Positions 6,392 through 52,311 of a stretch of DNA of 64,000 nucleotides are shown one piece after another. A model generated the notes under the pieces. The model was not told where the DNA came from, searched no databases, and saw only the letters and a list, made by a program, of their open reading frames with translations. Location: the UHGV virus genome UHGV-1370141, one strand, 5' to 3'. The translations under genes and the position numbers were made by a program. Each line of letters opens with the position of its first letter. Position 1 is the first letter of the stretch. This stretch comes from a virus.

Positions 6392-6602
6392 TTTAAAACT
6401 CCATTAGATTAAACAAAAAAAGAATAAAGATTAGGGGTGCTACATAAGCACCCCGTGAACTGTTAAATTTTGCAAGCCCCGCCTGAGCAGTTATCGTCTT
6501 CCGTAGTTGGGTCAGCACCCTTCTCTACGGTAGCTTCCGGGTCTAAGCCAGGGATTGCAAATTCGTCAGTTTCTTTAACGGTTTCTACTTTAACTTCTTC
6601 AG

Positions 6603-6827: not shown

Positions 6828-6997
6828 CAGACATCCCCAAAAGCCAGAAAGCGTTTACGACCCTTGTGTGGTCCTTTACGCCAGCGACTAGCGATAGTTT
6901 TACGATTTACTTTGCAACGGATTCTCTTATTCAGATTGATATACTTTATAGTAACTTTAATGACATCATTCGTCATAAAGAATTCCCTCATCATTAA

Positions 6998-7444
6998 TTA
7001 ACCCATTAAATGGATTACAACGTCTTTAGTTACTGAGTTTGCAAGTAAGCGGAAGAACTTCATGTAACGGAACATGCTAAAGAAAACCCCAGCGTCATCT
7101 ACAATGACAAGGCTGTATTTTTCCTTTTCTGTACCCATTTGGTAACCGCTGATTTGTGTGATGTTTTCCGGTAAGTCTTCGAGACCCAAACGGAATAGCA
7201 CATCGTCCTCTAAGAACCCTTTTGGGCTAACGAACAACACTTTCCCTTTATGGTTCTTAGCTAACTCGACACCAAAGTCTGTAAGCCCCATCTGCCTACC
7301 TGTACCGTAGCGGATAGTACGAAATTCAGATAAGGCATTGGGACCATAACGATCGGTAAACGGATTATCTTTAGAATCCAGATCGGTTAAACCTTTTGAT
7401 AATTCTTCTACTACGATGTTATAGTTAACATGAGTTTTAGACAT
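6998..7444 (-). CDS. Hypothetical protein (148 aa)
   Basis: ORF in - strand block, 30 nt upstream of thyA. Confidence 0.4.
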   Translation of the reverse strand: MSKTHVNYNIVVEELSKGLTDLDSKDNPFTDRYGPNALSEFRTIRYGTGRQMGLTDFGVELAKNHKGKVLFVSPKGFLEDDVLFRLGLEDLPENITQISGYQMGTEKEKYSLVIVDDAGVFFSMFRYMKFFRLLANSVTKDVVIHLMG

Positions 7445-7474
7445 TTTATCATACCTTTTTAATTAGGTGGTAAT

Positions 7475-8515
7475 TTATACTGCGACGGGGGCCGCAATAT
7501 GTGGATGAGCTTGATAACCAACTAATTCGAAGTCTTCGTATTTGTAATCGAAGATAGAATCCGGTTTACGTTTGATAACCAGTTTAGGTAACGGGTAAGG
7601 CTCACGTGTAAGTTGAAGTTTTGCTTGTTCCAGATGGTTAGAATACAGATGAACGTCTACACCACTATAAACCAACTCGTCTGGAACCATGTTCAGTTGT
7701 TGAGCAACGATGTATGTTAACAACGCGTACGAAGCGATGTTGAACGGTAAACCTAAGAATACGTCGTTTGATCGCATCAGGAAGAAACACGAAAGCTTAC
7801 GACGCGGAATACCTTCACGATCTAAAGTTTCATGAAGTCGTTCTTCATCATCAATATCTTCGTGTTTAATAAGCGGTGCGCTCGCAAATTTTTCCGGTTC
7901 GTTTACTTCGTACCATTCCAGTCTCTCAAGCAGTGACATTTCCGTTGTGTAGAATTGGAAGTAGTTGTGACACGGGTTAAGTGCCATATCGTCCAAGTCA
8001 CTTACGTTCCAGGCACTAACAATAATACGGCGGGAGTCAGGGTCTTCGAGAAGTTGTTGGATAACTTTGCTGATCTGGTCGTGAGATTTGCGATAAATAA
8101 CGATACTTTCTTCAGGGTTGTCCTTTGCAATAGTACCAACGTAGCGATAGCCTCGTTCTCTCAATACGTCTTTACTACGCTCGTCCCAAAGATAAACCAG
8201 TTTGGTATCCATCCATTCCCGCCACTGGTGTCCGTAGACAGGTCCTAATTCCCCTTCCGCATTCGCCCACTCGTTCCAGATTCTTACCCCATTCTCTTGC
8301 AGGTACTTCACGTTAGTGTCACCGTTCAAGAACCATAACAGTTCATGAATGATACTTTTCAGGTGAACCTTTTTCGTAGTAACTAATGGGAAACCTTCTT
8401 TCAGGTCAAAACGTAGTTGGCGACCAAATACAGAAAGTGTCCCTACACCTGTACGGTCTTTCTTAACAACGCCGTTATCCAGAATGTCTTGCATTAACGC
8501 TAAATACTGTTTCAT
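7475..8515 (-). CDS. thyA: Thymidylate synthase (ThyA type) with two insertions
   Basis: Near-identical blocks to E. coli ThyA: [87 protein letters not shown]. 346 aa versus 264 aa. Confidence 0.93.
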
Positions 8516-8823
8516 TAGATTTTGTCCTTTTCGAGTTCAGTTAAAATTTCAAATAGGTCTGCGTTGGATTGCAGTACGACTTCACTGCCTTCTGCTACAA
8601 CGGTAATTGAAGGCTTCTTACCACGTAGCAAGAACTCCCAACGCATTGTTCTTACGTGGCTGTCGAGTAACTGCTTTAATTTGTGGTTAACTTCGACTTC
8701 CAATTTGCCCAGTAACTGTGGTGTAATAGCTTCGCCTGAGTTTTTGTTATAAAGCGTACGCACTAAAGAACGTAAAGAATAGCCAATGCATTGCGAAATT
8801 GCCCAACCCGAATAGTTTTCCAT
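8515..8823 (-). CDS. Hypothetical protein (102 aa)
   Basis: ORF whose stop overlaps the thyA start (TAATG-type junction). Confidence 0.4.
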
Positions 8824-8824
8824 G

Positions 8825-9370
8825 TTAATCCTTCAAAATGTCTTTAAGCTTTAGTTTTGTATAGAACGGAGAACCGCTTAGTTCTTCTGTCCAACTTATA
8901 CGTCCGTTCTGTAGAACCCGGTCGAAGATTAGGCCGTACATCTTTACAATTCTGGCCAATTGATAAAAGAGCGTCGTGAGGTGTAACCGACGCTCCATTT
9001 GTGCACGGGCGGTACAACTGCGCACCGCTTTGATAGCAAGTACCGCTTCTGGCATCAACGTAAGCGCGATTGACTCAGGATGTTCATTTTTCCATTTCTT
9101 AATGGCTAGTAGTCGGTGTAAAGATTTTTCAAGGGGACGTAAATCCCCGTTATTCATCACGTAAACCAAAGCAGCAATATCCCACAAGGCAATACCTACT
9201 GCTTTAGCAACAAACAACCCGTCCTGTGTTGTCGTGGACTCACAGACTTTGCCAATACTTCCGTAAACACGTGCAGTCCATGCGTCTGTCTGTTCGCCAG
9301 GTTTTATACCCGCGTTATCCAGAAAGTGTTTAAACGCATTAACATGATCAGTTAACTGTATTTGTTTCAT
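8825..9370 (-). CDS. Hypothetical protein (181 aa)
   Basis: ORF tightly packed with neighbours on - strand. Confidence 0.4.
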   Translation of the reverse strand: MKQIQLTDHVNAFKHFLDNAGIKPGEQTDAWTARVYGSIGKVCESTTTQDGLFVAKAVGIALWDIAALVYVMNNGDLRPLEKSLHRLLAIKKWKNEHPESIALTLMPEAVLAIKAVRSCTARAQMERRLHLTTLFYQLARIVKMYGLIFDRVLQNGRISWTEELSGSPFYTKLKLKDILKD

Positions 9371-9384
9371 TTCCGATACCCGAT

Positions 9385-9849
9385 TTAGTCACGAGACTTT
9401 ATTTTAAGGTACGCAACCGCAGCTCCCATGATTGCAATACCGGCACCCCAACCTATCCTTTCTATTACACTCATATCGTCCCATCTTTTCTCTTCGTTAC
9501 GTCGTTTGGCCTCGTCTGCCCGTTCTCTCCACATCGCTTCGCGTTCCAGACAGCTGGGATTTATTTCCTCTTCACAACGACGTTTCCGTTCTTCTTCCCC
9601 AATCAGTTCTTCTAAATAGAGTCTCGTTTCTTCCACAGCTTGCTCATAGACGTCTATGCGATCGGGAAGAATTCTCCTGTGAGAGGCTTTGTTGCGAACG
9701 GAAGCAATCATGTGGAGTTTCCGTTCGTATTTTGGTTCGAGAAGATAGGCTATGCTTTTGGTCTTCTCATGAAGTCCACGACCAGTACCGCCGAGTTTTT
9801 CCACAAGTTCTTCTACAGAAATTGCAAGATCGAGAATATATCCACGCAT
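9385..9849 (-). CDS. Hypothetical protein with R-x4-H (HEPN-like) motif, charged coiled-coil region and C-terminal TM anchor
   Basis: Start moved to internal Met (MRGYILDL) to avoid overlap with the upstream gene; motif ASVRNKASHR; C-terminal IGWGAGIAIMGAAVAYL hydrophobic helix. Confidence 0.35.
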   Translation of the reverse strand: MRGYILDLAISVEELVEKLGGTGRGLHEKTKSIAYLLEPKYERKLHMIASVRNKASHRRILPDRIDVYEQAVEETRLYLEELIGEEERKRRCEEEINPSCLEREAMWRERADEAKRRNEEKRWDDMSVIERIGWGAGIAIMGAAVAYLKIKSRD

Positions 9850-9909
9850 AATTGTTTCTCCGCTTAAACGCAGTCTTGGGAGACATAAGTTTGTTCCCAA
9901 CTGTAAAAA

Positions 9910-10278
9910 TCATTTCAACAAAACAAGATGAATTTGGTATTCGTCATCCGCAGGAGAAGAATAGTCGCCGGTTTCAGGAAACGATAAATCCCCTAGTAGA
10001 CTGTGGAAGGATAATCCGTGTACAGCTTCAACTTTTCGTACAAGCGGAAAACCTGTTCTTTTAATCCAATTGTAATCGACAAACAAAACACCACCAGGAC
10101 TTCCCGAACCTGACCACACGCGAATGTCCACAGTCTTTCCTGAGAAGTTGGCAAGTACAGTGCGCAGTCCTAATAGCACATAACGGGGGAAGGGTACTTC
10201 AATAACTTGTTTTGGTAAAACAAATTCAGGGAATTTAAAACCGAAACCGTTGGGGGTATTAAAAAATTGAGCTTGCAT
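9910..10278 (-). CDS. Hypothetical protein (122 aa)
   Basis: ORF in - block; first gene after an upstream terminator. Confidence 0.35.
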   Translation of the reverse strand: MQAQFFNTPNGFGFKFPEFVLPKQVIEVPFPRYVLLGLRTVLANFSGKTVDIRVWSGSGSPGGVLFVDYNWIKRTGFPLVRKVEAVHGLSFHSLLGDLSFPETGDYSSPADDEYQIHLVLLK

Positions 10279-10295
10279 GGTAATTCTCCTTTAGG

Positions 10296-10336
10296 GTAAA
10301 AAATAAAAATACCCTACTCCCAGACAGGAGTAGGGT
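10296..10336 (-). terminator. Rho-independent terminator (CCCTACTCC-cagaca-GGAGTAGGG plus T-tract on - strand)
   Basis: Inverted repeat followed, on the - strand, by a U-run (plus-strand AAAAATAAAAAT); immediately after the stop of 10342..11001. Confidence 0.5.
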
Positions 10337-10341
10337 AGGTG

Positions 10342-11001
10342 TTACATACGGGTAACTGAATCCCAGTAATCACGAAGATATTCTTGGTCTTCAGGATCTT
10401 TTGGCGTAGCCGGAATATGGCCGTCAAACTCAAACGGAATCACGGACAACACATCCGCAATCTCGTAACGCTCGACTTCCAGTTCAACTTTCACCCAGTC
10501 ACCAACGCTGGTGCTACTACGCATCTCGGTGATAAGATCGTTAAAGTCACCTGAAACTTCAATGGCAGGGTGTCCGGTGGTGATTGTGAAAATATCAATA
10601 TCCCAATGCTTAGCCCCTTTATCGGCTAATTCACCCGGCTCTAAGTGAATACGTTTCACCAGGTGTGCCAAATAACCGTCTTTGTAAAAAGAGAGTGCGG
10701 AACTAATCCCGATATCCGAATTCTCTTCAACCTTTCCGTCCAGGAATTTACGCTTAAGCGTTAGCTGTGCCGTTCCGTCTTCTTTAATACGGATACGACG
10801 ACGCCCACCTTCTATCGGCATGAGAATGTCCATGAACATCTTGGCTTCTTGTGCGTGGAGCCAATCCCATCCCGCTTGCGTCGGTTTTACCCAAACGCAG
10901 TATTCCTTTTCGACTTCGTGTTTAATGGACTCACCAGCAACACGAATGATTTCTTCTTCCTGCGCTTTATCCAGCCGCGCTAGGGTATCGAACAATCCCA
11001 T
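10342..11001 (-). CDS. CYTH-like (triphosphate tunnel) domain candidate
   Basis: N-terminal EVEKEY resembles the CYTH ExExK start; RRRIRIK and LTLKRK basic strands; VELEVERYEI acidic strand. Low confidence. Confidence 0.3.
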   Translation of the reverse strand: MGLFDTLARLDKAQEEEIIRVAGESIKHEVEKEYCVWVKPTQAGWDWLHAQEAKMFMDILMPIEGGRRRIRIKEDGTAQLTLKRKFLDGKVEENSDIGISSALSFYKDGYLAHLVKRIHLEPGELADKGAKHWDIDIFTITTGHPAIEVSGDFNDLITEMRSSTSVGDWVKVELEVERYEIADVLSVIPFEFDGHIPATPKDPEDQEYLRDYWDSVTRM

Positions 11002-11822
11002 TAGATTAATCCCATACGTTCACTGACGTCCGTAATATCGAACGTCGAGTCGTTATAGTCGATGTTTTCTACAATAGAAATCACCAGATTAGGAAGCCAT
11101 TCAGAATGTAGTGGTGTAATCACCCGACCGTTCATGACGTAATAATGCAAGAACGGAAGATTCATCGAATGGCAGTAAGACAGGGTATTACCTAAACAAG
11201 ACCCGTCGTATTGCAATAGGTGCAACTTACGCAGCAGTGCATTCTTAAATGCACCAGTCGCGTAGCTACTAAACTCACCGGGACGGTAATCCGTTTTCCC
11301 GTAAATTGCCGCTTTTAATCGACGACCTAACTGAATACATTCCGTACCCGTTAACGTACGTAAACGAAGAATATCAGGAAATTCAGTCTCCAGACGTCCC
11401 ATCGTTTTAATCGAGTAACCCATGTGTAACATGTAGTCAACGATACGCAAGTAGTGATAGTAACCTTCCAACGTCAGGAACTGACCGTGTATCGTGTCAA
11501 ATTTTGACCCGTCGGGTTTCGCGTAGAAGTTACTGATCATCTTACCCACGGTAGTACGACCGTTGGAGTAAAAGTTGATGTGGTTCACCCCATCGGTAAA
11601 CGGGAGTTGTTCAGGTAAAGCACAAACATAGCCTAACCGTCTCAGGTATAGGACATAAGCAAGGCGCTCATCAGGCGTGAGTACAATGCTTGACGCGTTC
11701 ACGTAGGATTTAGAACGTAAATCGCCCGGCGCATAACCGAGCGTTAAAGCCAATGATTGAATGTCTTCACTTTGACTTTTGATTTTCTTTAATACGGAGC
11801 GCAGTAATTGTGGTTCGGACAT
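11001..11822 (-). CDS. Hypothetical protein (about 273 aa)
   Basis: Start set at internal Met (MSEPQLL) to remove overlap with the upstream gene stop. Confidence 0.4.
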   Translation of the reverse strand: MSEPQLLRSVLKKIKSQSEDIQSLALTLGYAPGDLRSKSYVNASSIVLTPDERLAYVLYLRRLGYVCALPEQLPFTDGVNHINFYSNGRTTVGKMISNFYAKPDGSKFDTIHGQFLTLEGYYHYLRIVDYMLHMGYSIKTMGRLETEFPDILRLRTLTGTECIQLGRRLKAAIYGKTDYRPGEFSSYATGAFKNALLRKLHLLQYDGSCLGNTLSYCHSMNLPFLHYYVMNGRVITPLHSEWLPNLVISIVENIDYNDSTFDITDVSERMGLI

Positions 11823-14498: not shown

Positions 14499-14570
14499 AA
14501 TTCACTCCGAAAGAATGTCTCACGTAAATAATATCTGTCTGACTTCTTTTTGAAAATGAGGTGGTTTTAA

Positions 14571-18207: not shown

Positions 18208-18507
18208 TTAACGATTCTTGGTCGGAAGAAGAAGACGGCGTTTGTGCCAGAATTCAAAGTAGGTCTCTACCCACTCGGTGACTTCTTCCGATTTTTCAGG
18301 ATAGGGGTTCTCAATAGACTCGAAACGACGTTTGTTGCGCTCGTCGATTTCTAATTCCATCACGCGCTTACCGTTAGGTAAAGAGGTCACGCTAAGAATC
18401 TTACCTACTTGAATAGGCTTACCTTCTTTGTCTTTTTTCACCGGGGTAAGATAGATTTCCGGTTCCAGACGAGGCGTGGTGTTTCGAGTCAGTAATTTGA
18501 TTTTCAT
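18208..18507 (-). CDS. Hypothetical protein (99 aa)
   Basis: ORF immediately downstream of 16696..18192. Confidence 0.35.
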   Translation of the reverse strand: MKIKLLTRNTTPRLEPEIYLTPVKKDKEGKPIQVGKILSVTSLPNGKRVMELEIDERNKRRFESIENPYPEKSEEVTEWVETYFEFWHKRRLLLPTKNR

Positions 18508-23094: not shown

Positions 23095-23131
23095 GGTGAC
23101 TAACTCCGAGGGTTCTACACCTGAATAATAT

Positions 23132-23803
23132 CTATCTAAGAAAGTTTTTAGCGAAATAGGGATCGATGTGAAACGCTTTCACGAGAGAATCATAGCCGGA
23201 GTGAATCTGATCGGAGTTGAGCAGGAAACGGTCTAGATCGTGAGGCAATATCCAGGCGTCACCTTGTTTGAAAATAGTGTGACCTACAGTTTCTGGAGAA
23301 AATCGAATTTCTTCCGGGAAGGGATACGTTTGCTTCAAATCGAGGTCGGTGGGTTTTAAGGTAACTAAACGAACGGGTCGTTTACTGGCCACCTCCTTAA
23401 CGAATTGGTTACGATCAAACCAGATAATCTTTTCAGGGTAGCTTTCCAGCTCACTCCAGACCTTGTTAATCACCAGATTAAAGTTCTGTTGCAGTTCCCC
23501 GGATTGGTTAGCGTAACCTAAGCACTCTTCTACCAAAGCTGGATTACCGTAAGTGTTAGTAATAACCTGTGCAATCACACGTTGTGGGAAACAATCTTTC
23601 GGTATATCACAACCTGCATTGTACAATGCAATGATTTCCCACAATGAGCGTAAGGCAAGTTCAAGTGACACTTCCCCGAGTGTATAGTGGTCGTCAGAAT
23701 AGGGGGCTTTAAAGCCCCACTGCTGACGCGCAATTGCTGAAAAGCGTATCTGGATATAACTCGGTGCCATCGATAACGCTTGACTAAAAACAATCAGCAT
23801 CAA
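23132..23803 (-). CDS. Hypothetical protein (223 aa)
   Basis: ORF with 4-nt overlap with the upstream gene. Confidence 0.4.
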   Translation of the reverse strand: MMLIVFSQALSMAPSYIQIRFSAIARQQWGFKAPYSDDHYTLGEVSLELALRSLWEIIALYNAGCDIPKDCFPQRVIAQVITNTYGNPALVEECLGYANQSGELQQNFNLVINKVWSELESYPEKIIWFDRNQFVKEVASKRPVRLVTLKPTDLDLKQTYPFPEEIRFSPETVGHTIFKQGDAWILPHDLDRFLLNSDQIHSGYDSLVKAFHIDPYFAKNFLR

Positions 23804-39923: not shown

Positions 39924-40316
39924 TTATTCAGCGCTACGATTTAAAGTAATACGACCGATCAGTTCTGCATTATGGAAGAAGTCCACAGCAGTATAGTTAC
40001 CGACCTCTAACGGATGAATACTGACTGACATGACTTTTGGTTGTTCGCAGGCGATATCCGTCAGACGTTGGTAGACTTGTGCACGAGTGTCAGCAATGAG
40101 TAATCCGGTACACGATTCACCACGCACTAAACGATAAACTTGCAGTTTACCGAAACTGCGCATTAACGTAGGCGACTCATCCGGGTTGATAATGGGTGAA
40201 TCAGGAGCCGGTTCGTAATGGCGGACGTCCGAATCGCCGAAAGCATAAGTGGCCGTAATACCGACTGCACAGAAAATAATGATGGTATAAAGTATAGTTC
40301 TGATATTCATTTTCAC
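39924..40316 (-). CDS. Small secreted protein 4 of 5 (130 aa)
   Basis: Signal-peptide-like MKMNIRTILYTIIIFCAVGITATYA. Confidence 0.45.
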   Translation of the reverse strand: MKMNIRTILYTIIIFCAVGITATYAFGDSDVRHYEPAPDSPIINPDESPTLMRSFGKLQVYRLVRGESCTGLLIADTRAQVYQRLTDIACEQPKVMSVSIHPLEVGNYTAVDFFHNAELIGRITLNRSAE

Positions 40317-40800: not shown

Positions 40801-40892
40801 TGTTTTGCTCCTCGTGGGGTTAACAAGTAAAAGAGTTAATCTTAACTCTCACCTAAGTAATATATATCTGAGATTATTTTTAATGTTAGATA

Positions 40893-40926
40893 ACAAAAAA
40901 TAAAAGGTGGGGTTTACACCCCACCG
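40893..40926 (-). terminator. Rho-independent terminator (GGTGGGGT-ttac-ACCCCACC; U-run on - strand)
   Basis: Perfect 8 bp stem with plus-strand A-run on 5' side, right after the stop of 40930..41508. Confidence 0.5.
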
Positions 40927-40929
40927 TTG

Positions 40930-41508
40930 TTAAACGTCGAATCGATACTGACGAGAATTGATTAAGAATTCTGTATTCAGTTCAATCCATTCGAGCAGGT
41001 CACCCAGTTGTAAACGACTTGGGTTTTCTAACTCGATAGTGGCAACCGGATAAGAGTTTACTAATTCCGTAATTGCCTCAATACCTTCTTGCGTTCCATC
41101 GTCTTCTAAGGTAATTATAAACGGCATATCGGTACGCTCTGCGTTCGGGTTATACAGACTGACTTTCGTTGCCTGTACAAACGCCGAGTAATCGTCACGC
41201 ATGATTCTAATGTCAGGCGCTAACGTTACCCAGAGGTGTTGTCCCGGTTGGAGTTTACGTTTTGCGTAGTTTAAGAACGGATTAGCCGGTAAGTTTTCCA
41301 AACCACTGCAAATGTTCCGTAAATGAATTCCTCGCGGGTCTTTATAGTCCACAGTGAAAATTCCTACCGGTTCACGGTCTGCCTGTTTTACCAGAAAGGC
41401 CAATACCGTGTCCGCTCTCTCTGGTAAGGAAAGCTCTATTCCCTCAAGCTCCCCGTCGACGAGGTTTTCCAACCAAACGTCTTTTCTCATTTCTATTAAT
41501 CGGTACAC
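40930..41508 (-). CDS. Hypothetical protein (192 aa)
   Basis: ORF in - block. Confidence 0.4.
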   Translation of the reverse strand: MYRLIEMRKDVWLENLVDGELEGIELSLPERADTVLAFLVKQADREPVGIFTVDYKDPRGIHLRNICSGLENLPANPFLNYAKRKLQPGQHLWVTLAPDIRIMRDDYSAFVQATKVSLYNPNAERTDMPFIITLEDDGTQEGIEAITELVNSYPVATIELENPSRLQLGDLLEWIELNTEFLINSRQYRFDV

Positions 41509-41520
41509 GGTACCACCTCT

Positions 41521-42294
41521 TTAGTTATTGAGATTTACATCTGCGATAAACAACAATTGTTTGCCGTGTTGCTGTACTTCTTTCCAACCTAATTTCATAG
41601 CAGTATCAACAACATCAACCATGCTGTAACGGGACATCAAAGATTCTGATTTTGTTCCTGACATTAAGTAAAGTGGCTCATTAGGGCTACGGTCACGTGC
41701 GTCAGGAAGTTCACGTACGACTGCCGAGCCTTCGGGTACGGTAACAAGATGAATCACGGTAAATGGCCTCTTGTGCGTTAAATAGATACGAAATCCAACG
41801 TGTTCAGATTCATGAAAGATTTTCCTCACAACCACATCTTTCAGTGTTGTTTGAACATCAGCCCCAGGCAATATCATGGATTCGCGTGAAACGAAACAAC
41901 GACTATTTTCAATTGTGGAGAAATAATTACGTAGCGGTAAACTGGCGTTATTATCGCGCAGTCTTTTGCTTAAACGGTCGTAATCCATTTCTTTAACTTC
42001 TTCTAACCATGCGTAGGCACGTTCAACGTAGTACAGACCAACAGCGCGATAAGTTAATACTTTGCCTGTGGCCACTTGCCAGAGCTTAACGGTTAGCGTA
42101 TCAGGTTTATATCGCCGATATTCTCCGCGTGTATAAGTGATACGTTGATAAAGACCCACGTCTTCTGTTGGCGCGGATTCGACCGATTGTAATTGCAGCG
42201 TTCGATGAAATCTATCGTCTAGCAACAATGAAGCCAGCGAACCTTTAACCATATACGGTTCAGATTTAAAGAGGTCGTCTAAATGAATTTTCAT
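41521..42294 (-). CDS. Member 1 of a four-gene paralogue family with conserved C-terminal module (GWKEV...GKQLLFIADV)
   Basis: 257-aa ORF; the C-terminal roughly 30 aa is shared with the three neighbouring genes. Confidence 0.5.
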   Translation of the reverse strand: MKIHLDDLFKSEPYMVKGSLASLLLDDRFHRTLQLQSVESAPTEDVGLYQRITYTRGEYRRYKPDTLTVKLWQVATGKVLTYRAVGLYYVERAYAWLEEVKEMDYDRLSKRLRDNNASLPLRNYFSTIENSRCFVSRESMILPGADVQTTLKDVVVRKIFHESEHVGFRIYLTHKRPFTVIHLVTVPEGSAVVRELPDARDRSPNEPLYLMSGTKSESLMSRYSMVDVVDTAMKLGWKEVQQHGKQLLFIADVNLNN

Positions 42295-42361
42295 TTCTAT
42301 TTCCTTCTTAACAAAAGCCGCGACTAAAGCGCGGCAGTTAGAGAAAGTGTATTTTCACTTA

Positions 42362-43513
42362 TTAAAGGTCAGCAACAAACAGCAGCTGATTGCCGTACGG
42401 TTCGACAGATTTCCAACCGTAATCTTTACCGATCGTCGTTAGATGACCGGTATTTAACTTTTTGTCAACCATTCGCAGACGCATCATTAGCGTATTGGAT
42501 TCTGCCGCATCGAGTAATAACGCAGGTTCTTTTTCAGTGCGGTCATCTGCTTTCGGGAAGAAACTGTAATATTGACTTTTGGGCAGATCGATTGACAACG
42601 TATAATTTTTCTTTGTAACGAATAACGCCATCCCTTCGAAATTGCAATCGAAGCGATATTCCCAACCCGCTTCTGCTAAAACGTCCTTTAGCATCTCCAT
42701 GACTTTAAGCTGGTTAACGCTAGGCAGTCGGTAGATTGCAAGACCACTTGGGAAAATGCGTATACCGTCGACGACACTATCGGTGGTTTCGTCAATAAGT
42801 TCAGGATAGCGTTGTGAGAAAATGTGATCGCTCTTGCTTTTCTCTTCGACGTCACGAATGAATTGGGCTAATTCGTCTTTTAAGGCAGACATTTGATTTT
42901 CTCCTTTGTCTTCAATAATCAGGTGGGGTTCGCCGCTAACTAAAATGTGGTAAACAATGTCGTCGGTAGAACGGTAAGTGAGCTTGATAGCTTTATCACT
43001 TAACATTTCGTAGCGGAAGAAGCTTTCGTACCAGCTTGAGCCGAAATCGTTTTGTGTGAGTTCCTGCTCAACTTTGATGGTTTTTGCTTCAAAGCCAATT
43101 AACCCGCTTAATAACGCGAGTTCTGGTTTAGTTAAAATAGCTGCGCCGTGAAAGGACACTTGTTCAAGCTGAAAACATAAATTACTGACTTTACCACTTG
43201 GGAAGACTTTAAACATAATCTTCCGGTTGCTACTCTTTTCTCTAACAACGAGTTTACGGTAATTTAGTCCAGAATTTGTGTAAGCCGTGAACTGGTAACC
43301 TTCAATTTCTTCGTCGTAAGTACAGACATCGACAGGCGCGATAATCTCATCGTATTCACTCAGTACACAGCAGCCCAAGTTATAACCAAACAACTCGCGT
43401 TGTAATGAAGACTCGATGGTTAAGCTTGGCAGTGGCCATGTCCGATTATAGCATCTGTCCATCAGTTCTTTTAGGATCTTGACATGCCCTGGTTTAGAAA
43501 TAATATTTCGCAT
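42362..43513 (-). CDS. Member 2 of the paralogue family (C-terminus GWKSVEPYGNQLLFVADL)
   Basis: 383-aa ORF; shared C-terminal module. Confidence 0.5.
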   Translation of the reverse strand: MRNIISKPGHVKILKELMDRCYNRTWPLPSLTIESSLQRELFGYNLGCCVLSEYDEIIAPVDVCTYDEEIEGYQFTAYTNSGLNYRKLVVREKSSNRKIMFKVFPSGKVSNLCFQLEQVSFHGAAILTKPELALLSGLIGFEAKTIKVEQELTQNDFGSSWYESFFRYEMLSDKAIKLTYRSTDDIVYHILVSGEPHLIIEDKGENQMSALKDELAQFIRDVEEKSKSDHIFSQRYPELIDETTDSVVDGIRIFPSGLAIYRLPSVNQLKVMEMLKDVLAEAGWEYRFDCNFEGMALFVTKKNYTLSIDLPKSQYYSFFPKADDRTEKEPALLLDAAESNTLMMRLRMVDKKLNTGHLTTIGKDYGWKSVEPYGNQLLFVADL

Positions 43514-43541
43514 TTTTACTCTCCTTTAGGGTTTTCGTTAC

Positions 43542-44081
43542 TTAAACATCAAAAGCTAAGAACAACAGTTGCTGACCGAGTTTGCGCACAGTATGCCAGC
43601 CGTGCGCTTTTGCTGTTTCTACTAACGTTTCCCAATCGTCAACGTTACAACCGTCTTTTTTCAGTTTTGTAAGTAGTGTCTCTGCTTCTTTATCTGTCAA
43701 CAATAATCCTGGGTTACTTAACGTAGACGTAAGTGGGTTAGGGAAATATGCGTAGCGTCTTGCGAAAGTAAAGTTCACGAGATAACGTGCTTTCCCCGTG
43801 TCTAGAAGCGTAACAACATCCACGCCGCCGTCGTAGGACGCGCTCGTCACTTTCCATCCTGTACCGGAAAACAGTTGACTGAATAATTTGGTAAAGATAT
43901 CCCCGGAACCGCGATGATAAAGCACAGCATCTTCGTTGATTTTTTCTATTTCAATACCAGTGATCGTTGTACCCGGTTGAATAACGTTAGACAATATACT
44001 GTACGGGCTTTCAAAACGATGTTTACCCACACCCAGGTTAACAAACTTAATAGCTTGTTGTTTCATTTCGATACTAACCAT
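43542..44081 (-). CDS. Member 3 of the paralogue family (C-terminus GWHTVRKLGQQLLFLAFDV)
   Basis: 179-aa ORF; shared C-terminal module. Confidence 0.5.
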   Translation of the reverse strand: MVSIEMKQQAIKFVNLGVGKHRFESPYSILSNVIQPGTTITGIEIEKINEDAVLYHRGSGDIFTKLFSQLFSGTGWKVTSASYDGGVDVVTLLDTGKARYLVNFTFARRYAYFPNPLTSTLSNPGLLLTDKEAETLLTKLKKDGCNVDDWETLVETAKAHGWHTVRKLGQQLLFLAFDV

Positions 44082-44108
44082 GATATTTTCTCCTTTAGGT
44101 TTTTTTAC

Positions 44109-44846
44109 TTACGCGGTTTTAATTAACAGCAGATAGTCCTTCGTAATCTCAGCACAACCCCACCCTCTCATCGCGGCGATTTTACGAAGATCAATTTTCT
44201 CGTGATATTTCAATAAGGGATCGTCCGGGTTAATTTCAACCAGGTGTGTGGCTTTAGAAATCGTTTCCACATCTGGTATTTGTTTTGCTAAGTCCGATGC
44301 AATTAGTTCAATAACGCGGTATCCGTTTAACACAGAAACATAAATGCGTAAACCATATAGCGTGCCCTCGTCTTCTAATGGACAAAGATCGATGCCGGGT
44401 CCAAGCAGTGATAACTCGACGTTATCGGGAAGGTTTTCTGCATTTCGGAGTAACCCTATCCCATTTCTAAACAGAGGGAAGTAAGAGAATAGTGGTGGTA
44501 AAGCCCAACCATTCCCAATAAGCACATCAGCGATACTCGTAGGTGTGTTCGCAAGAAGACGAATGTGGTCAGCCACAACTTCAAGTTCGGCATCACTGAT
44601 CAACTTATAGATTAACATGACACTGGTTTCGGTATTAATAACAAAGAAGACGCGGTTGGCGTAACTGCCTATCACGTATTCGTCAATCATACAGTCGATA
44701 ACGTCACTGTCTGGATAATCTTCAGGTTTAATTGTTCCAGCATCGATTAACTTAGCAGGTTGCGATTGTTTTAATAGTTCTTTAACCACCGTAGAAGAAA
44801 GTTCTAAACTGGTGTTGGTAAAGATATCGTCTAACAATTCTCTCAT
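44109..44846 (-). CDS. Member 4 (divergent) of the paralogue family (C-terminus GWGCAEITKDYLLLIKTA)
   Basis: Start set to internal Met (MRELLDD) preceded by AGGAGA SD; weaker match to the C-terminal module. Confidence 0.45.
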   Translation of the reverse strand: MRELLDDIFTNTSLELSSTVVKELLKQSQPAKLIDAGTIKPEDYPDSDVIDCMIDEYVIGSYANRVFFVINTETSVMLIYKLISDAELEVVADHIRLLANTPTSIADVLIGNGWALPPLFSYFPLFRNGIGLLRNAENLPDNVELSLLGPGIDLCPLEDEGTLYGLRIYVSVLNGYRVIELIASDLAKQIPDVETISKATHLVEINPDDPLLKYHEKIDLRKIAAMRGWGCAEITKDYLLLIKTA

Positions 44847-45231
44847 GGGGTTTATTCTCCTAAAAAGGGATAAGGAAGTCACTACGTTCCTCTGGGAAGA
44901 GTATGTCGGTATACTACGTATACCTCCGCTATTTATATCCGTATACATAATGCCCCCTACCCCCTACCGGTATCCCGAGTAGCAGAATAAAGGGACAATC
45001 TGTAAATTTTAAGTAATACTATGATTACCGTGGTAGATAAGGTGAATAGTGACGGAAGAGTCTCACTACCTCTTCGATACCGTCTTTCTGTTCAGCGAAC
45101 ATGGTAGCCTCCACTATTGTTAGTATCCGTTTCGAAAAGAAACGTGCCCATAGGGGTTGAAGTGCGAGTTCAACCCCTATTCACTTAAGTAAAATATATC
45201 TGAATCTATTTCCGATCTAAGGAACGACCTA

Positions 45232-46396: not shown

Positions 46397-46606
46397 ATGG
46401 CTATTAAAGAATTCTCTTCTGCTGAACACATTCCTGAAGAGTTCAAGAAAATTGGTAACGTAAGCGCTTTCGGTGATACCGTAGACGACGTTACTGCTAA
46501 GCTGGCTGTCGAAGCTGAAAAGATCGGCGGTGAAGCGTTTAAAGTTATCGGTATTTCCGGTAACAACAAACTGCACGGTAACGCGATTGTCTACAAAAAA
46601 GACTAA
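46397..46606 (+). CDS. DUF1471 (YdgH/BhsA/McbA)-like small protein without signal peptide
   Basis: FGDTVDDVTAKLAVEAEKIGGEAFKVIGISGNNKLHGNAIVYKK resembles, from memory, the E. coli BhsA/YcfR core (...GAKSFRITSVTGPNTLHGTAVIYK); GGAGAG SD; flanked by hairpins on both sides. Confidence 0.5.
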   Translation: MAIKEFSSAEHIPEEFKKIGNVSAFGDTVDDVTAKLAVEAEKIGGEAFKVIGISGNNKLHGNAIVYKKD

Positions 46607-46608: not shown

Positions 46609-46666
46609 GAAAAAAAAACGTGCTACTCCTACCCTCTAAGAGGGTAGGAGGTTACTTATTTTTTTC
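46609..46666. terminator. Bidirectional rho-independent terminator (CTCCTACCCT-ctaag-AGGGTAGGAG; A-run 5', T-run 3')
   Basis: Perfect 10 bp stem between convergent genes ending at 46606 (+) and 46656 (-). Confidence 0.6.
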
Positions 46667-47918
46667 TTGCACGGAAACGATGCATTTCCAAATAGACTTT
46701 TTCCCAGGGACCGAAAGGCCCTACGATTGCCTGTGCATCGTTAATTTTCTTCTGGTTATACCAACGGGCCTCACGGAACACGTAGTTTTGACTGTCGAAT
46801 TCCGTGGTGTTAAATACCCATTCCCCTTCTTCCCACGTCGGCCAGTAACCAACGGTTTTACCGAAGCGGTTTAACAGATAACCCAGTTGTTTTTCCCCAT
46901 CAGGGTCATTAGGATCTTTAAGGTATAAACGTCCCCAGATAGCGTTGTGAGAAACCCCCACAACTTCTTCTTCCAGATACGGATTATCCACCGTAAAGAT
47001 AAACGACGACTCGTGGGTTAAAAGCGCCTTTAACGTTTCTGGGTTGCGGATACGCTGTACGCTGGTCGGGGATGACAGATCGCCAACGCCGATGCTATCC
47101 CAGTCGTAATAACGTCGGGTTTCTAGCACAGTACGCGCAACGTCAAAGTTCGGTAACGAGACCATAATGGCTTTGTCGGAGAAGTACCCAGTAACCGGTA
47201 ACCAGTGTATCAGACCCCCGATAACAAACCCCACGGTTTTACCCGTAATAGATTCCGGTAAAGAAATCATTAACGTGGAATAATAGTCACGGGTGGTGTC
47301 GAGTTTGTTTAAGGTCAAGTTAGCAATGGGGTACGTTTTAACATTCCCCAACTTACTAAAGACCATGCACCCGATATCCGGTGTCCCTGCACGACGTACT
47401 ATCTTACCCGCACCCGGTAAACGTACACCAACAGTATCCGACTGATGTGGTACCCATTGACCGTTGATGTTGTACAACACCCCGTTACGGTATTTGTCTT
47501 TCCATTTATCTTCGCAAACAATCACAACGTCGTCAGCATCGTCTATACTGAAATTTTGACTGTAGTGATAACCGGGAGGACACAGATAAGTTTCTACTGG
47601 AACATCAGCATTAATCGATTGGTAGTGTGCCCAATCAAACTCTAACGTCGGTAAACCGTCTTTCAACGCAGAGATAACCACACCGGCTTTTTCATTCAGC
47701 CAGTCTTGTAACGTATCGGTACGGTTTTGTAAGTCAGCGAGGTGATATTGGCTAATTAACGTATAGTCTTTACCAAGCGCACTCAGACCGACTTCGAAAA
47801 TATGGTAATCAGAACACAAGGTTTCTAAGGGTTGCGTGACGTCGATGGCTCCCCAGGTACGGGTCTCTCGAGAGAAGCCAAAAGCGCTGTCAGGCCGTAC
47901 TTGATAAGCAGTAGTCAC
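46656..47918 (-). CDS. Hypothetical protein (about 420 aa); start uncertain
   Basis: Listed ORF (46656..48134) would overlap the 5' end of the divergent fibre gene by about 150 nt; an in-frame GTG preceded by GAGGA gives a start at 47918. Confidence 0.4.
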   Translation of the reverse strand: MTTAYQVRPDSAFGFSRETRTWGAIDVTQPLETLCSDYHIFEVGLSALGKDYTLISQYHLADLQNRTDTLQDWLNEKAGVVISALKDGLPTLEFDWAHYQSINADVPVETYLCPPGYHYSQNFSIDDADDVVIVCEDKWKDKYRNGVLYNINGQWVPHQSDTVGVRLPGAGKIVRRAGTPDIGCMVFSKLGNVKTYPIANLTLNKLDTTRDYYSTLMISLPESITGKTVGFVIGGLIHWLPVTGYFSDKAIMVSLPNFDVARTVLETRRYYDWDSIGVGDLSSPTSVQRIRNPETLKALLTHESSFIFTVDNPYLEEEVVGVSHNAIWGRLYLKDPNDPDGEKQLGYLLNRFGKTVGYWPTWEEGEWVFNTTEFDSQNYVFREARWYNQKKINDAQAIVGPFGPWEKVYLEMHRFRARKK

Positions 47919-47985
47919 AGCTCTTTTCCTCAATAGATTCAAGTCATAGTATGAACTCGACGCCCACGGACTATAGGAGTAGATA

Positions 47986-50900
47986 ATGGCTGTCGTCCTA
48001 GACCCACACTTCAAAGAACCGGGGAATAAAATAACCGGTGAAGCGGTCGCCGTCATTGGTACGAAGTACCGAATGTTGGTACCTGCCCACGCCCCTTTTT
48101 TCACCACATCCCTGGTGGTCAAGAGCGGCGGCAAAATACTGACCTTAGGCGACGATTACGTTATTACACACCCGTACGAGACCGGTATGTTGCGCACAGC
48201 CTATCTCGTGCACGGGATGATTTGGATTGTTAACGACAAATACAAATCGAATTTCACGGTAGATTACCACGCCGTAGGTTGCGGTGAGGCAACCCAAGAA
48301 CAGATTACCGCAGAACGCGAACTCAATAAAGATAAATACCCGTCTGCGTGTCAATGGGATACCGTTATCGGCGACGTTTACTTTCCACCGGTCGACATTC
48401 AGTTCGACTGGGAAAACTGGAAAGGTGAACTGGAATTAATGCAGACCATTGCAGGCTTAGGTGATTCGTTAGGTAACGTGGTGAATCGGGTAGACCCGAT
48501 TGCACGTAACACGTTAGATATCGAGCATCGCGCTAATGGTACGGTTAGCACGTCTGAACAGTACGCAACGTACGACAACAAAGGTGGGTATACTTACAAT
48601 ACCGCTAAACGTCGTTTCTCCGTTACGTACAAAACCACCACGTTAAATGAATATTCCCTGTCGATGAAATACCGTATTCCGGCTATTTTTCCGAATATGG
48701 GGAGTATTAATCCGAACGAACAAATCGATTGGATGTTGTGCTATGCGAATGGTGGCGCAAGTATCCTTCGTCTCCAATTAAAACAACGTAAAATCAGCCT
48801 ACGACTGACGGTCGCGTTAGGCAGTGGTTCGACCGATTATGATTATACGTTAATCAACGGTTTGACCGATGACGAATTAAAAGGCGAATTAACGTTTAGC
48901 GTTGTCCGTCAACCGGGTAACGGTGTATACGTTATCGAGGTGACGACTAACAAACAGTCCATGGACTATACGTTTAACGTCGACACACCGCCAGACGAAT
49001 TCTCAGCAGGTTACAGCAAAACGGATGTTGCGAAGTGGCTGAAATACAAAACCAACGTTAACTTAAACTGGTGGGCGGCTGAAAACGATTACGCTCAATT
49101 CCTTGCGTTACCTGGTGCGCCAGAAGCAGACGTAAGTAACGACGTTTATCAGTTAATCGTTAAGTACCATCAGTTAGTAGAGCAACTCTATCGCAACGCA
49201 CCTGCACACGAACACGTTACACGTAAGGACAACCCGCACAGCGACACGTGGGGACCGATTCGTGCGTTAGAATTAAACGGCATTGCGTCCGACGCAGCGT
49301 TAACCTACGGGAAAACCAAGCGACAGTTAACGGACTACGTTAACGCTAAATACCCAACACAGGCAACGCTAACCACCCAGAGAAAACTGCTTCGAGAATC
49401 GGCGAGCAAGAACGTTAACGGCACGATTACAGCGCTCCCTGGCTTTACGTCATTTACTACTGAAGTCGACCCAGTGTCGATGTCGAAATACGTTAGTCGG
49501 CAATTTAGCGAATATTACGTTTCGAACGGAATTGGATACCACGGAGCACTTCGCTACGCTGGAACTAAAAACGGGTTCTCATGTTATTTTAACGGTGTTC
49601 CCGCTGATTTACAAGACATCGACTTTATTGTAACGGGTACAAGAGTTGCAGGCGATAATTCAGCGATCGGCGTGGCTCAGATGCGATTCTACGAGAATCC
49701 GGGTACCGAGTCCGGTAAGTATGTTGAGCTGGAAGGTTCGCTCTCCGGAGATCGCCTTTCCATCCAAGTATCGCTTGGCGGATATGGTGTCGGTACAGAC
49801 CCACAAGTCCGTTATATCTCCAAAGCACCTGATCCGGTGGTGCCTGCTGGCGATTTCACATTACGTTTCCAGATGAAACGAACCGGTAATCTTTTTGACG
49901 TTATCGTTACGGTGAACGGGAAAACCTACAGTGCGCGTGTCAATTTCGTCAATATGGATGCCGAGTTAGAAGCGCTGGAAAACCGTTATCACTTCAAGAG
50001 CTTTATTAATAACGTTGCAGATAGGGTCAGTATCCAATCTGCTCACAACAGAAACTACGTTACCATCAAAAAGGCTCCTGACGTTGTTGACGAAAGACGT
50101 TTAGGCGCTCAATTCGTTGTTGATCCGAAGTCCATTAAGTTTATCGGTCAAGGTTCTACCGATGTTCATGCGGGTAACAACCCTGTTACGTTACAGGCAG
50201 GCGATAACCAGCTTGTGCTATACCCCGATGACCGTGGACTGTTGTGGCGTGGTAAGAAACTCTTAGACCCCACTACGGTAGCGCCGTATTTGCCGGGTAA
50301 TACCGCAGGCGGTACAGGTCTGTTCTACGGTGCATCTACAGCTACAGTGGAACTTACTGGTAGCGGGATTAAAGCATCGCCGTTTGTCGCAACGTTTATC
50401 CTTCCGGTTGCCGAAGACGTCACGACGTTAGCCTGCTGGCAGTTAACGGATGAATTCGGTACGGCTGAAAACCTTGCAGCTACACCCGCGTTAATTGAAA
50501 AACTGGACGCAGAGTTTACCGGTAAGTTAGTTGCTGCCAAGTCGTACATCAACGACATGCAGCTTACCAGTTCGATTACTATCGACAAAATTACCTTTGG
50601 TTTAGGTAACGTTGCGAATACCCCGGACCTCGATTTGCCGATTTCTGTTGCACAACAGACTGAGTTAGACAAATACTCACCGAAGGTTCACCAACACCCG
50701 TCTTCTGTGTTCGGTGTTGAAAACGCAGACACCACGAAACGGGGTCTGATTAAATTCGGTCTGGAAGTGGATGATACCACTTTAGCACTCGATGGTAGTG
50801 TGGTGATGGCGCAGACTTCCCAGATTGAAAATTTGGAGAATACCGTCGGCGGGGTTGACTCGGGTGCGCGCGTTGACATTATTCGCTTTGGTAAGTCCGG

Positions 50901-52311
50901 TAACGACTTAATTGACGTTACGGTTAAAGACAATATCCTGGTGTCACTTCCTGCTTCCACGTATTTCGTTGGCGGCGAAACGTACGACGTGCCGTTGATG
51001 ACGGTTAACGTTACCGAACGTTTCCCGAACCCGAAAACAGTAATTTACGCAGGGATTTTTGTTGATATCGTTGACAACAAAGCGAAGTACATTATCCACG
51101 ACAGCTATAACCAAGCTGAGACGGATACCATGACGCGTGTGGGAAGACTCGTTGTTAATGATCTTTCCGAAGTGGATGTAGTGGAGTTGCGTAACGTGAC
51201 ACGGTTAGGCGATTTCCGTGAGCTGAAAGACCACGTCGCCAATGACAACGCACACATTCACCGCTCCGCGTCACGTGCAGTGCTGGGGTTAAGCAATTTA
51301 ACAGTAGGTGCGCCCTGCTGGGCTTCTGGACTTCAAGCGGTTGTGCGTGGCGAGGCAGATTGGCGCTATGTGGTTGGTGGTGGATATAAAGCACTCGATG
51401 GTGTGAAATACGACCAGCTTGCGTCGAAGTGGGTGTTTGATGCGAAAGGGGTAAGTGATAATGTTCACGGGTTTATCCACAACCTGTTCCCAGTATTTAA
51501 CAATGCGGGGATGCGAGTCAGTTGGGAAACCGAAAGCAACGCAAAAACCGGTACGGTGCTAGAAACCATCCTGGGTTGCTGGAAAAACACCGATGGCGAG
51601 TTTATGCGGTTGTCGTTACTTATCACCCGTGGTTACCGGTTAACTGACAGTAACGGTGAATATTGTTACGCGGGGTTCGGTTTGAACTTCAGTAACGGGA
51701 AATCGGTAGTGTTAGGTTTCACGCCAACGAAACGTGTTACAGCTGCACCATGGAGCACATTACAACCTGACGTAACGTTTAGTCACACCCGTGGTGCAAA
51801 CAACGCAATAACGTTTAATGCAACACTGACCTTAGCTGGTACTGCGTATACCATTGTGGTGTATTTGTCTGCGACGGATAAATACGTAAGCTGTACAGCA
51901 GCAGGGGGAACTACGCAGAAAATCTCACTGAGTGACCGTTTAACCGGGTTCAACCTCGCACCTATCGTTAACGATCCGTATACCCCTATTTACTACGGAT
52001 TAGGGGGACTTTATGAGGACGAAGTGCGTGCTAATATCCGTTCTACGGCAGACAGCATAATCGGGAACAAACTCTACGGTACGCTGTTGGATTATATCAG
52101 CAACTACTCCTCGTTAAATCGTGTACGCGTCGTGGAATTGGCCGGGACAAGCTCAGACCCTGAAACGCTTAATGCGCTAGTGGCGACTGAGTTTAATAAC
52201 AACCTGGCGGATTACGCTGCGTTACCGATACCTCCTTATCTTAACAAGGAGCGCGTAATGTCGTTTATCGACACCAACAATTTAGTGCAGGCGGTAATCA
52301 TTCGCGATTAA
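47986..52311 (+). CDS. Tail fibre/tailspike-like receptor-binding protein 1 (1441 aa)
   Basis: AGGAG SD; N-terminal anchor motif PAHAPFFTTSLVV...LGDDYVIT shared with the next three genes; very large T/N/G/V-rich beta-type protein. Confidence 0.6.
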   Translation: MAVVLDPHFKEPGNKITGEAVAVIGTKYRMLVPAHAPFFTTSLVVKSGGKILTLGDDYVITHPYETGMLRTAYLVHGMIWIVNDKYKSNFTVDYHAVGCGEATQEQITAERELNKDKYPSACQWDTVIGDVYFPPVDIQFDWENWKGELELMQTIAGLGDSLGNVVNRVDPIARNTLDIEHRANGTVSTSEQYATYDNKGGYTYNTAKRRFSVTYKTTTLNEYSLSMKYRIPAIFPNMGSINPNEQIDWMLCYANGGASILRLQLKQRKISLRLTVALGSGSTDYDYTLINGLTDDELKGELTFSVVRQPGNGVYVIEVTTNKQSMDYTFNVDTPPDEFSAGYSKTDVAKWLKYKTNVNLNWWAAENDYAQFLALPGAPEADVSNDVYQLIVKYHQLVEQLYRNAPAHEHVTRKDNPHSDTWGPIRALELNGIASDAALTYGKTKRQLTDYVNAKYPTQATLTTQRKLLRESASKNVNGTITALPGFTSFTTEVDPVSMSKYVSRQFSEYYVSNGIGYHGALRYAGTKNGFSCYFNGVPADLQDIDFIVTGTRVAGDNSAIGVAQMRFYENPGTESGKYVELEGSLSGDRLSIQVSLGGYGVGTDPQVRYISKAPDPVVPAGDFTLRFQMKRTGNLFDVIVTVNGKTYSARVNFVNMDAELEALENRYHFKSFINNVADRVSIQSAHNRNYVTIKKAPDVVDERRLGAQFVVDPKSIKFIGQGSTDVHAGNNPVTLQAGDNQLVLYPDDRGLLWRGKKLLDPTTVAPYLPGNTAGGTGLFYGASTATVELTGSGIKASPFVATFILPVAEDVTTLACWQLTDEFGTAENLAATPALIEKLDAEFTGKLVAAKSYINDMQLTSSITIDKITFGLGNVANTPDLDLPISVAQQTELDKYSPKVHQHPSSVFGVENADTTKRGLIKFGLEVDDTTLALDGSVVMAQTSQIENLENTVGGVDSGARVDIIRFGKSGNDLIDVTVKDNILVSLPASTYFVGGETYDVPLMTVNVTERFPNPKTVIYAGIFVDIVDNKAKYIIHDSYNQAETDTMTRVGRLVVNDLSEVDVVELRNVTRLGDFRELKDHVANDNAHIHRSASRAVLGLSNLTVGAPCWASGLQAVVRGEADWRYVVGGGYKALDGVKYDQLASKWVFDAKGVSDNVHGFIHNLFPVFNNAGMRVSWETESNAKTGTVLETILGCWKNTDGEFMRLSLLITRGYRLTDSNGEYCYAGFGLNFSNGKSVVLGFTPTKRVTAAPWSTLQPDVTFSHTRGANNAITFNATLTLAGTAYTIVVYLSATDKYVSCTAAGGTTQKISLSDRLTGFNLAPIVNDPYTPIYYGLGGLYEDEVRANIRSTADSIIGNKLYGTLLDYISNYSSLNRVRVVELAGTSSDPETLNALVATEFNNNLADYAALPIPPYLNKERVMSFIDTNNLVQAVIIRD

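Follow-up and report, generated by a model that had tools for sequence, protein, structure and literature searches.

Four neighbouring genes that differ at one end and agree at the other raise the question of what the common end is, and what it does for the phage that carries it. These genes stand at positions 41,521 to 44,846 of a 64,000-nucleotide stretch of the UHGV virus genome UHGV-1370141 (hereafter the window), as consecutive minus-strand open reading frames (ORFs) of 257, 383, 179 and about 245 amino acids (aa), called A, B, C and D in this text. An earlier note on this DNA had read them as tandem paralogues in which variable N-terminal regions sit on a constant C-terminal module that it did not recognise, and had seen in them a diversifying family such as host-takeover or anti-defence effectors. 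The ORFs are present as claimed there, and their C-terminal strings read as quoted. We find that A–D are a tandem paralogous family, that their common end contains a small domain with a conserved signature, and that their N-terminal parts are exchanged among relatives of this phage. Their function is weighed below with more reserve.

A tandem family with a common C-terminal end

Genes A, B and C are related by sequence beyond what chance would give. BLASTP aligns A with B at 50 bits over 142 aa, B with C at 45 bits over 113 aa, and A with C at 32 bits over 64 aa. Leave-one-out hidden Markov models (HMMs) of the last 85 aa, searched against all 642 ORFs of the window, recover A at an E-value of 4.5e-19, B at 2.7e-15 and C at 3.9e-10. 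An HMM built only from proteins of other phages (SPN3US gp175, Phobos gp176, CR5 gp165, Derbicus gp170 and one metagenomic protein) finds the same three at 9e-17, 4e-10 and 1.6e-5, respectively, and none of the remaining ORFs in the window was scored as carrying the module. The C-terminal similarity of A, B and C is therefore significant by BLASTP and by both kinds of model. The shared stretch spans ∼110–140 aa in total and consists of a ∼65-aa domain, which we call the module, and a beta-hairpin that precedes it. The related ends reported in the earlier note are thus real, while the unit they belong to is larger than the last 18 residues.

Gene D is a divergent member. Neither the leave-one-out nor the external HMM detects it significantly (E 1.3 and 3.3), and BLASTP aligns it with A at 28.5 bits over 140 aa. 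Gene D has 85 orthologues of 243–250 aa with 47–97% identity, and when a 54-member profile of this D family is compared with the module-family profile using hhalign, the two align over their full length, with both C-termini in register (P 8.8e-5). The alignment places IPDVETISKATHLVEI of D opposite PDxxDRSxNEPxxLLS and GWGCAEITKDYLLLIK of D opposite GW..V…G.QLLFIA. Only the P-D and GW residues of the signature are retained in D; a D-family motif, KQIPxxETISKATH, replaces PDxxDRSxNEP, and conservation within the D family peaks at residues 181–210, where this motif falls.

AlphaFold2 models were obtained for C (predicted local distance difference test, pLDDT, 89.4; predicted template modelling score, pTM, 0.71) and for D (pLDDT 87.4, pTM 0.82). 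The C model ends in a strand (residues 125–128), two helices (130–142 and 150–159) and two further strands (164–168 and 171–175), and the D model in a strand (200–204), two helices (210–214 and 220–226) and two strands (231–234 and 238–242), so that a strand-helix-helix-strand-strand topology is predicted for both modules. A long beta-hairpin precedes the module in D, as it does in A, B and C, and six of the nine top matches of D in BFVD are family members that C also matches, at weak E-values of 2e-3 to 4e-2. Based on the profile alignment, the common predicted topology and the common BFVD neighbours, we accept D as a family member that has lost most of the signature residues. Together, A–D are a tandem paralogous family.

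The module: signature, spread and placement

The module follows the consensus [IL]PDxxDR[ST]xN[DE]PxYLMS, a helix, a variable loop, and A…GWxxVxxxGxQLLF[IV]A. Its P, R, P, L, G, W, V, G and Q residues are 90–100% conserved, while the loop between its two helices accommodates inserts from 0 to ∼50 aa. The full signature is present in A and B, while C keeps P, N-P, GW, V and G-Q without D-R. The module is neutral on average, with a median isoelectric point of 6.7 and a net charge of 0 (range −7 to +7). A helix-GW-strand unit further upstream was considered as an internal copy of the module and is unsupported (hhalign P 0.05 over 13 columns).

A profile search of 1.84 billion representative proteins at E ≤ 1e-3 returned 67 clusters, one of them a false positive: the 959-aa protein P0049, a repeat protein rejected as a carrier. 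With so few clusters carrying the module among so many proteins, four adjacent carriers are no coincidence. Proteins of 129–550 aa carry the module at their extreme C-terminus (in P0012, an orthologue of gene A, it was matched at residues 186–253), and in members of 72–130 aa it forms the entire protein. In a few cases, including P0064, P0074 and a protein of PhiEaH1 (residues 15–98 of 246), it is N-terminal. Because it occurs C-terminally, N-terminally and on its own, the module is an autonomous, self-contained domain. The description of a constant C-terminal module thus holds for A–D and does not extend to the whole family, in which the module can be N-terminal or the whole protein.

The module was not recognised by the earlier note, nor is it by the collections searched. 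Searches of Pfam with the window proteins, with 10 stand-alone or long members and with 40 full-length members gave no family; NCBIfam and PADLOC hold no module family, with only noise from PADLOC (E 0.007–0.05 at 10–13 bits); and no PDB chain is related to it by sequence profile. It belongs, then, to no well-characterised family in these resources. Four PHROG families contain it (26772, 33648, 24489 and 18480), all annotated as “unknown function”; the first three match the C-terminus of gene B, and 26772 also matches gene A (E 4e-11). Known defence and anti-defence families gave no profile match in Pfam, NCBIfam, PHROGs or PADLOC, where no dedicated anti-defence library was used.

All classified isolates with a match belong to genera of the Chimalliviridae, namely Seoulvirus, Derbicusvirus, Machinavirus and Iapetusvirus, with Wellington and Eowyn added through BFVD. 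Among classified isolates, the module is therefore restricted to this family; one Shewanella jumbo phage, not counted among these classified isolates, also carries it. At E ≤ 0.02, C matches uncharacterised proteins in BFVD, of which the named ones come from Erwinia and Klebsiella jumbo phages; three of the matches have accessions from the same series as the named Wellington protein, suggesting a single genome. In the homologue table of a study of SPN3US, gp175 has homologues in PhiEaH2 and CR5 only, and none in phiKZ (PMC5105663, Table S1).

The genomic neighbourhoods of stand-alone members are mostly uninformative. On a 2.9-kb metagenomic contig (L012), a Tad2-like gene (PF11195; positions 952–1206) lies 0.5 kb downstream of P0039, a stand-alone module member of 98 aa. 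On a phage-like contig (L010, positions 5156–6231), a 280-aa gene stops 2 nt before a 76-aa gene that consists of the module only, and here two separate genes, coupled in translation, may encode the N-terminal domain and the module.

Exchange of N-terminal regions between relatives

The array is found again, with its order kept and with similar gene lengths, in the relatives L006, L008 and L009 and in an element of Escherichia coli 98232. The genes that flank the array in L006 and L008 are 96–100% identical to those of the window at the amino-acid level. Within the array, gene A is 83% identical in both relatives, gene D is 51% identical in L008, gene C is 42% identical in L009, and gene B is 94–97% identical in L006, L008 and L009. 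The differences cluster in the N-terminal parts, and the hairpin and module are nearly identical. The comparison of near-identical relatives thus bears out the picture of variable N-terminal regions on a conserved module.

For gene A compared with near-identical relatives, synonymous divergence (dS) is 1.3–1.4 over residues 1–120 versus 0.14–0.24 over residues 121–257. In D and C, the N-terminal dS is saturated and not computable; neighbouring genes have a dS of 0.07–0.2. The ratio of nonsynonymous to synonymous divergence (dN/dS, Nei-Gojobori) is 0.12–0.57 in N-terminal segments and 0.02–0.33 in C-terminal segments; in the informative comparisons, the C-terminal values are 0.02–0.14 for A, B and C and 0.24–0.33 for D. 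Because dS is saturated in the divergent segments and dN/dS stays below 1, the N-terminal parts have been swapped between phages by recombination, as old divergent alleles, rather than evolved fast. Breakpoints coincide with the conserved C-terminal part or lie close to it, and the module and preceding hairpin are under purifying selection. Gene B differs in its history: in comparison with L009 (window 42362–43513, L009 8343–9494) it is 94% identical with a dS of ∼0.2, amid flanking genes with a dS of ∼1, which points to a recent horizontal exchange of B as a single gene.

Losses occur as well. In L006, a relative ∼96–99% identical, the orthologue of C (9770–10309) contains an in-frame TAA (CAT CGC to TAA CGC) and is broken into ORFs of 55 and 102 aa, amounting to a natural knock-out. 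In L007, a Derbicus-like metagenomic contig, all that is called of the family is a 92-aa module gene that follows ∼1 kb of uncalled DNA. These two cases indicate that individual members are dispensable.

The phage and the genomic slot of the array

One conserved window protein, of 498 aa, shares 81% identity with the SPN3US counterpart; its 278 relatives are from jumbo phages that infect Pseudomonas, Erwinia, Salmonella and other hosts. A megablast search of the locus against 50,697 isolate phage records gave zero matches, and even the structural genes of the window have just short matches, at 71–77% identity. We conclude from these three results that the window comes from an uncultured SPN3US-like jumbo phage of the Chimalliviridae. 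Tblastn searches of B and of D against isolate phages likewise gave no matches. Close relatives are contigs of ∼222–227 kb from E. coli, Salmonella and Shigella assemblies, many with the same genes. One of them, L018 (NZ_CP173450.1, bases 1312–11545), is 90% identical in nucleotides over the locus (window 41000–45200) and was deposited as a “plasmid”, circular and 221,873 bp long, of the human urinary E. coli isolate 98232. This deposit and the many contigs of similar size suggest that a phage of lytic type travels in cultures, in a carrier state or pseudolysogeny, or contaminates isolates.

The family occupies the same slot in SPN3US, Phobos, CR5, Derbicus and Parshik, directly after a divergently oriented baseplate-like gene, and heads a long run of small hypothetical genes that reaches an SbcC/SMC-like gene. 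The copy-number comparison proposed in the earlier note shows variation at this slot: one family gene in SPN3US, CR5, Derbicus and Phobos, three in Parshik (gp186–188) and four in the window clade. The coordinates of the array and of its associated elements are listed in Table 1. The start of gene D is the ATG at 44846, as indicated by an upstream AGGAG ribosome-binding site, the lengths of its orthologues and the gene calls in relatives.

Table 1. Genes, modules and putative regulatory elements of the array (window coordinates)
Feature	Position	Strand	Description
Terminator-like hairpin	40906..40925	-	GGTGGGGT…ACCCCACC and T-run, after the 192-aa gene; consensus scan
192-aa gene (phrog_20879)	40930..41508	-	Non-family gene; position of SPN3US gp176
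Gene A	41521..42294	-	257 aa; variable N-terminal ∼120 aa, then conserved beta-hairpin and module
Module of A	41524..41709	-	Residues ∼196-257; LPDARDRSPNEPLYLMS…KLGWKEVQQHGKQLLFIADV; alignments
Terminator-like hairpin	42317..42335	-	GC hairpin and T-run in the 67-nt gap from B to A; consensus scan only
Gene B	42362..43513	-	383 aa; orphan N-terminal ∼245 aa, then beta-hairpin and module
Module of B	42365..42559	-	Residues ∼319-383; FPKADDRTEKEPALLLD…DYGWKSVEPYGNQLLFVADL
Gene C	43542..44081	-	179 aa; N-terminal alpha/beta region, then module
Module of C	43545..43745	-	Residues ∼113-179; alignment and AlphaFold2 model
Gene D	44109..44846	-	245 aa; divergent family member; longest ORF would begin at 44948
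Divergent module of D	44112..44279	-	Residues ∼190-245; hhalign and AlphaFold2 model
Promoter-like AT-rich motif	45181..45211	-	CAGATATATTTTACTTAAGTGA, upstream of the array; 31-nt direct repeat with 40849-40879

The two copies of the 31-nt repeat flank the block formed by D, C, B, A and the 192-aa gene. A 22-nt core of the repeat, CAGATATAT[AT]TTACTTA[AG]GTGA, has 0 matches in shuffled sequence. CR5, Derbicus, Phobos, L007 and all close relatives share this core, on the coding strand and ahead of the family gene. Its place in Parshik is the interval from gp186 to gp187, just before the second family gene. In the window, weaker copies stand ahead of further minus-strand genes (14520–14541, 23117–23138 and 18438–18459). 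More generally, the motif CAGATATATATTACYTARGTGA is conserved upstream of minus-strand operons, and this conservation extends over SPN3US-like, Derbicus-like and Machinavirus phages. The motif probably represents the consensus promoter of a phage RNA polymerase, possibly of the early class. A review of jumbo-phage RNA polymerases describes conserved AT-rich motifs upstream of operons that, wherever tested, are early promoters of the virion RNA polymerase (PMC7598289). With the motif conserved upstream of the family and this statement on early promoters, early transcription of the array from the predicted promoter is plausible. The 192-aa gene is probably co-transcribed with the array, and the hairpin after it probably ends the transcription unit D-C-B-A-192aa. 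A search of Rfam over 39–47 kb gave no match.

Between the promoter-like motif and gene D (44955–45180, minus strand) there is a perfect hairpin with a 9-bp stem, GGGGTTGAA…TTCAACCCC, at ∼45150–45175, a possible 25-codon ORF with a GGAGG site (45025–45102, minus strand), and a tandem G-rich repeat, GGTAGGGGGTAGGGGG, immediately upstream of 44948 (minus strand). SPN3US has gp174 at this position, which has no counterpart in the window. Near the array are also a 69-aa YdgH/BhsA-like (DUF1471) protein (46397–46606, plus strand), a 153-aa protein that begins with a signal-peptide-like stretch and has orthologues tagged YfjT (PF27224; 40339–40800, minus strand), and a protein of 128–130 aa with a hydrophobic segment at its N-terminus (39924–40316, minus strand). 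These three small neighbours look host-derived or secreted and may be periplasmic accessory or exclusion factors. On the other side of the DUF1471 gene, the longest ORF at 46656–48134 (minus strand) is 492 aa with a TTG start and overlaps 47986–52311 (plus strand) by ∼150 nt. Relatives call a 420-aa protein that starts near 47918, a homologue of the SPN3US tail protein gp171; given the overlap and these calls, the start of the 492-aa ORF is wrong.

Possible roles of the family

From the copy number of one, three or four in the same slot across genera, and from the natural losses, we infer that the proteins are accessory. The surrounding region holds further accessory-looking genes, such as those for the secreted YfjT-like and the YdgH/BhsA-like proteins. 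The reading we lean towards, tentatively, is that A–D are accessory, non-virion modular adaptors or effectors. A phage-specific AT-rich promoter would drive the whole array as a single transcription unit; promoters of this kind mark the early operons of jumbo phages that have their own RNA polymerases. The constant module would bind one common partner, which could be a phage protein, a host protein or another ligand, while the exchangeable N-terminal domains would give differing specificities. The proteins would then act in phage–host interaction, in host takeover or anti-defence, rather than in virion structure or core replication. Binding of a partner is preferred over binding of DNA because the module is neutral and its inter-helix loop is variable in length.

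Several observations weigh against a role as adaptors or effectors directed at the host. None of the 40 full-length members has an N-terminal domain recognisable by Pfam, and no target is indicated. The sole association with anti-defence is that of one stand-alone homologue (P0039) with the Tad2-like gene 0.5 kb away. There is also a weak structural resemblance, with the whole 179-aa C model as query, a length that depresses Z for a domain of 60 aa, to winged-helix domains, and such domains can bind nucleic acid. Positive selection is not seen, with a dN/dS below 1 everywhere, and the array is stable at four genes within its clade, with a turnover below that of typical arms-race loci. The label of a diversifying family is therefore only partly apt: copy number does differ across phages and N-terminal parts are exchanged, but positive selection is not seen, and the number of genes is fixed within the clade.

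Two alternatives would make the array either structural or obsolete. It is highly improbable that A–D are virion-associated host-range or tail-assembly factors, encoded beside baseplate genes and mosaic in the manner of receptor-binding proteins. The array does adjoin a baseplate-like structural gene and tail genes (homologues of SPN3US gp170–173), and mosaic alleles are typical of host-range genes, but mass spectrometry of the SPN3US virion, which bears on gp175 as the homologue of the window proteins, lists gp167–171, gp173 and next gp193 (Thomas et al., 2016; PMC5105663, Table S4). The absence of gp175 and its downstream neighbours from this list, although gp170, gp171 and gp173 are included, shows gp175 to be outside the virion. 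Moreover, the array lies on the opposite strand in an operon shared with non-virion genes, a varying N-terminus with a constant C-terminus is the reverse of tail-fibre polarity, and the models of C and D are small globular alpha/beta structures without fibre, beta-helix or coiled-coil features. Just as little credence can be given to the view that the array consists of decaying duplicates without a present function. The nonsense codon in the C orthologue of L006, the module-only remnant after uncalled DNA in L007 and a relaxed dN/dS of ∼0.56 in some N-terminal segments are what decay would leave, yet all four frames are intact in the window, L008, L009 and the E. coli 98232 element, the 85 orthologues of D are full-length down to 47% identity, dN/dS in the module is 0.02–0.33, and the family is kept across several genera.

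Other alternatives concern what the module binds. It could be a winged-helix-like nucleic-acid-binding domain in proteins that regulate transcription or DNA metabolism, with N-terminal domains that sense signals, which we consider unlikely. Winged-helix and Xis/MerR-type domains have a core of the predicted strand-helix-helix-strand-strand topology, the conserved R, N and Q could touch phosphate or bases, and one stand-alone member has a faint Pfam match to TBPIP/Hop2 (E 0.009), although at 16.4 bits this match is under the curated cut-off of 22.8. The module is, however, neutral on average and often acidic, inter-helix inserts of 0 to ∼50 aa are ill-suited to a fixed helix-turn-helix geometry, and four regulators with swapped N-termini in a single operon would be unusual. 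The module might also be a ligand-binding “sponge” for a host immune signalling molecule, with a pocket made by the conserved polar residues and with oligomerisation or other activities contributed by the N-terminal domains. Known phage sponge proteins are similar in size to the stand-alone module members, and the module has (nearly) invariant polar D, R, N and Q residues in the loop before strand 1 and on strand 3; one stand-alone member is also near a Tad2-like gene. This support from gene neighbourhood is a single case, though, no similarity to known sponges is found in Pfam, PADLOC or the BFVD structural neighbours, and D is strongly conserved despite having lost most of the conserved polar residues, which leaves a sponge very unlikely.

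Within the adaptor or effector reading, a more specific and quite doubtful version is that the module is a Chimalliviridae-specific docking domain that tethers interchangeable recognition or effector domains to a conserved hub. Such a hub could be a component of the phage nucleus, the import machinery or a conserved host factor. If this were true, the family would be a phage counterpart of F-box-like adaptors, with N-terminal cassettes traded to track variable host targets.

Significance and comparison with known systems

Nucleus-forming jumbo phages are studied for their escape from immunity, and most of their accessory genes are without an assigned function. The module is a domain undescribed until now, and its definition would annotate several PHROG families of unknown function even if the proteins were ordinary accessory ones. 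It also offers a tractable system, with a small, confidently modelled domain, a narrow family of 67 clusters, and natural N-terminal swaps and knock-outs. Identifying the partner of the module should uncover either a hub of host interaction or a regulatory domain not seen before.

The closest known proteins are SPN3US gp175 and members of the four module-containing PHROG families, which resemble A–D in having the same module at the same end of the protein. The slot of gp175 is also that of A–D, with the baseplate-like gene on one side and the phrog_20879 gene on the other. SPN3US, CR5, Derbicus and Phobos differ in having a single copy, with unrelated N-terminal regions, in place of the four of the window clade. 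The winged-helix domains compared include those of Stn1, Nse1, CtsR, RepE and the N-domains of O-methyltransferases, along with the Xis/MerR-type core. In contrast to these, the module gives no sequence or profile match at family thresholds, is neutral, has an inter-helix loop of variable length, and begins with a conserved PDxxDRSxNEP arm that has no counterpart in winged-helix domains.

Mrr-like PD-(D/E)xK nucleases resemble the N-terminal region of C in having a helix followed by three strands, with a faint Pfam Mrr_cat match at residues 59–103. An Mrr-like nuclease was nevertheless rejected for this region, as the Mrr_cat match (16.2 bits) is below the cut-off of 21, a PADLOC mREase match is likewise sub-threshold, and the would-be nuclease residues are unconserved (DGGVD…NFT in C versus EGKTS…DFL in P0031 and L009).

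In poxvirus ankyrin/PRANC (F-box-like) proteins, variable target-binding domains are attached to a constant docking domain, and these proteins are like A–D in their variable N-terminus, constant small C-terminal domain, tandem copies and accessory status. There is no sequence or fold relationship between the two, so that the likeness is an analogy of working mode and not of membership. Large viruses often have multigene families that pair a constant domain with a variable one. The novelty of A–D lies in the domain, in its confinement to nucleus-forming jumbo phages, and in the clear-cut trading of cassettes.

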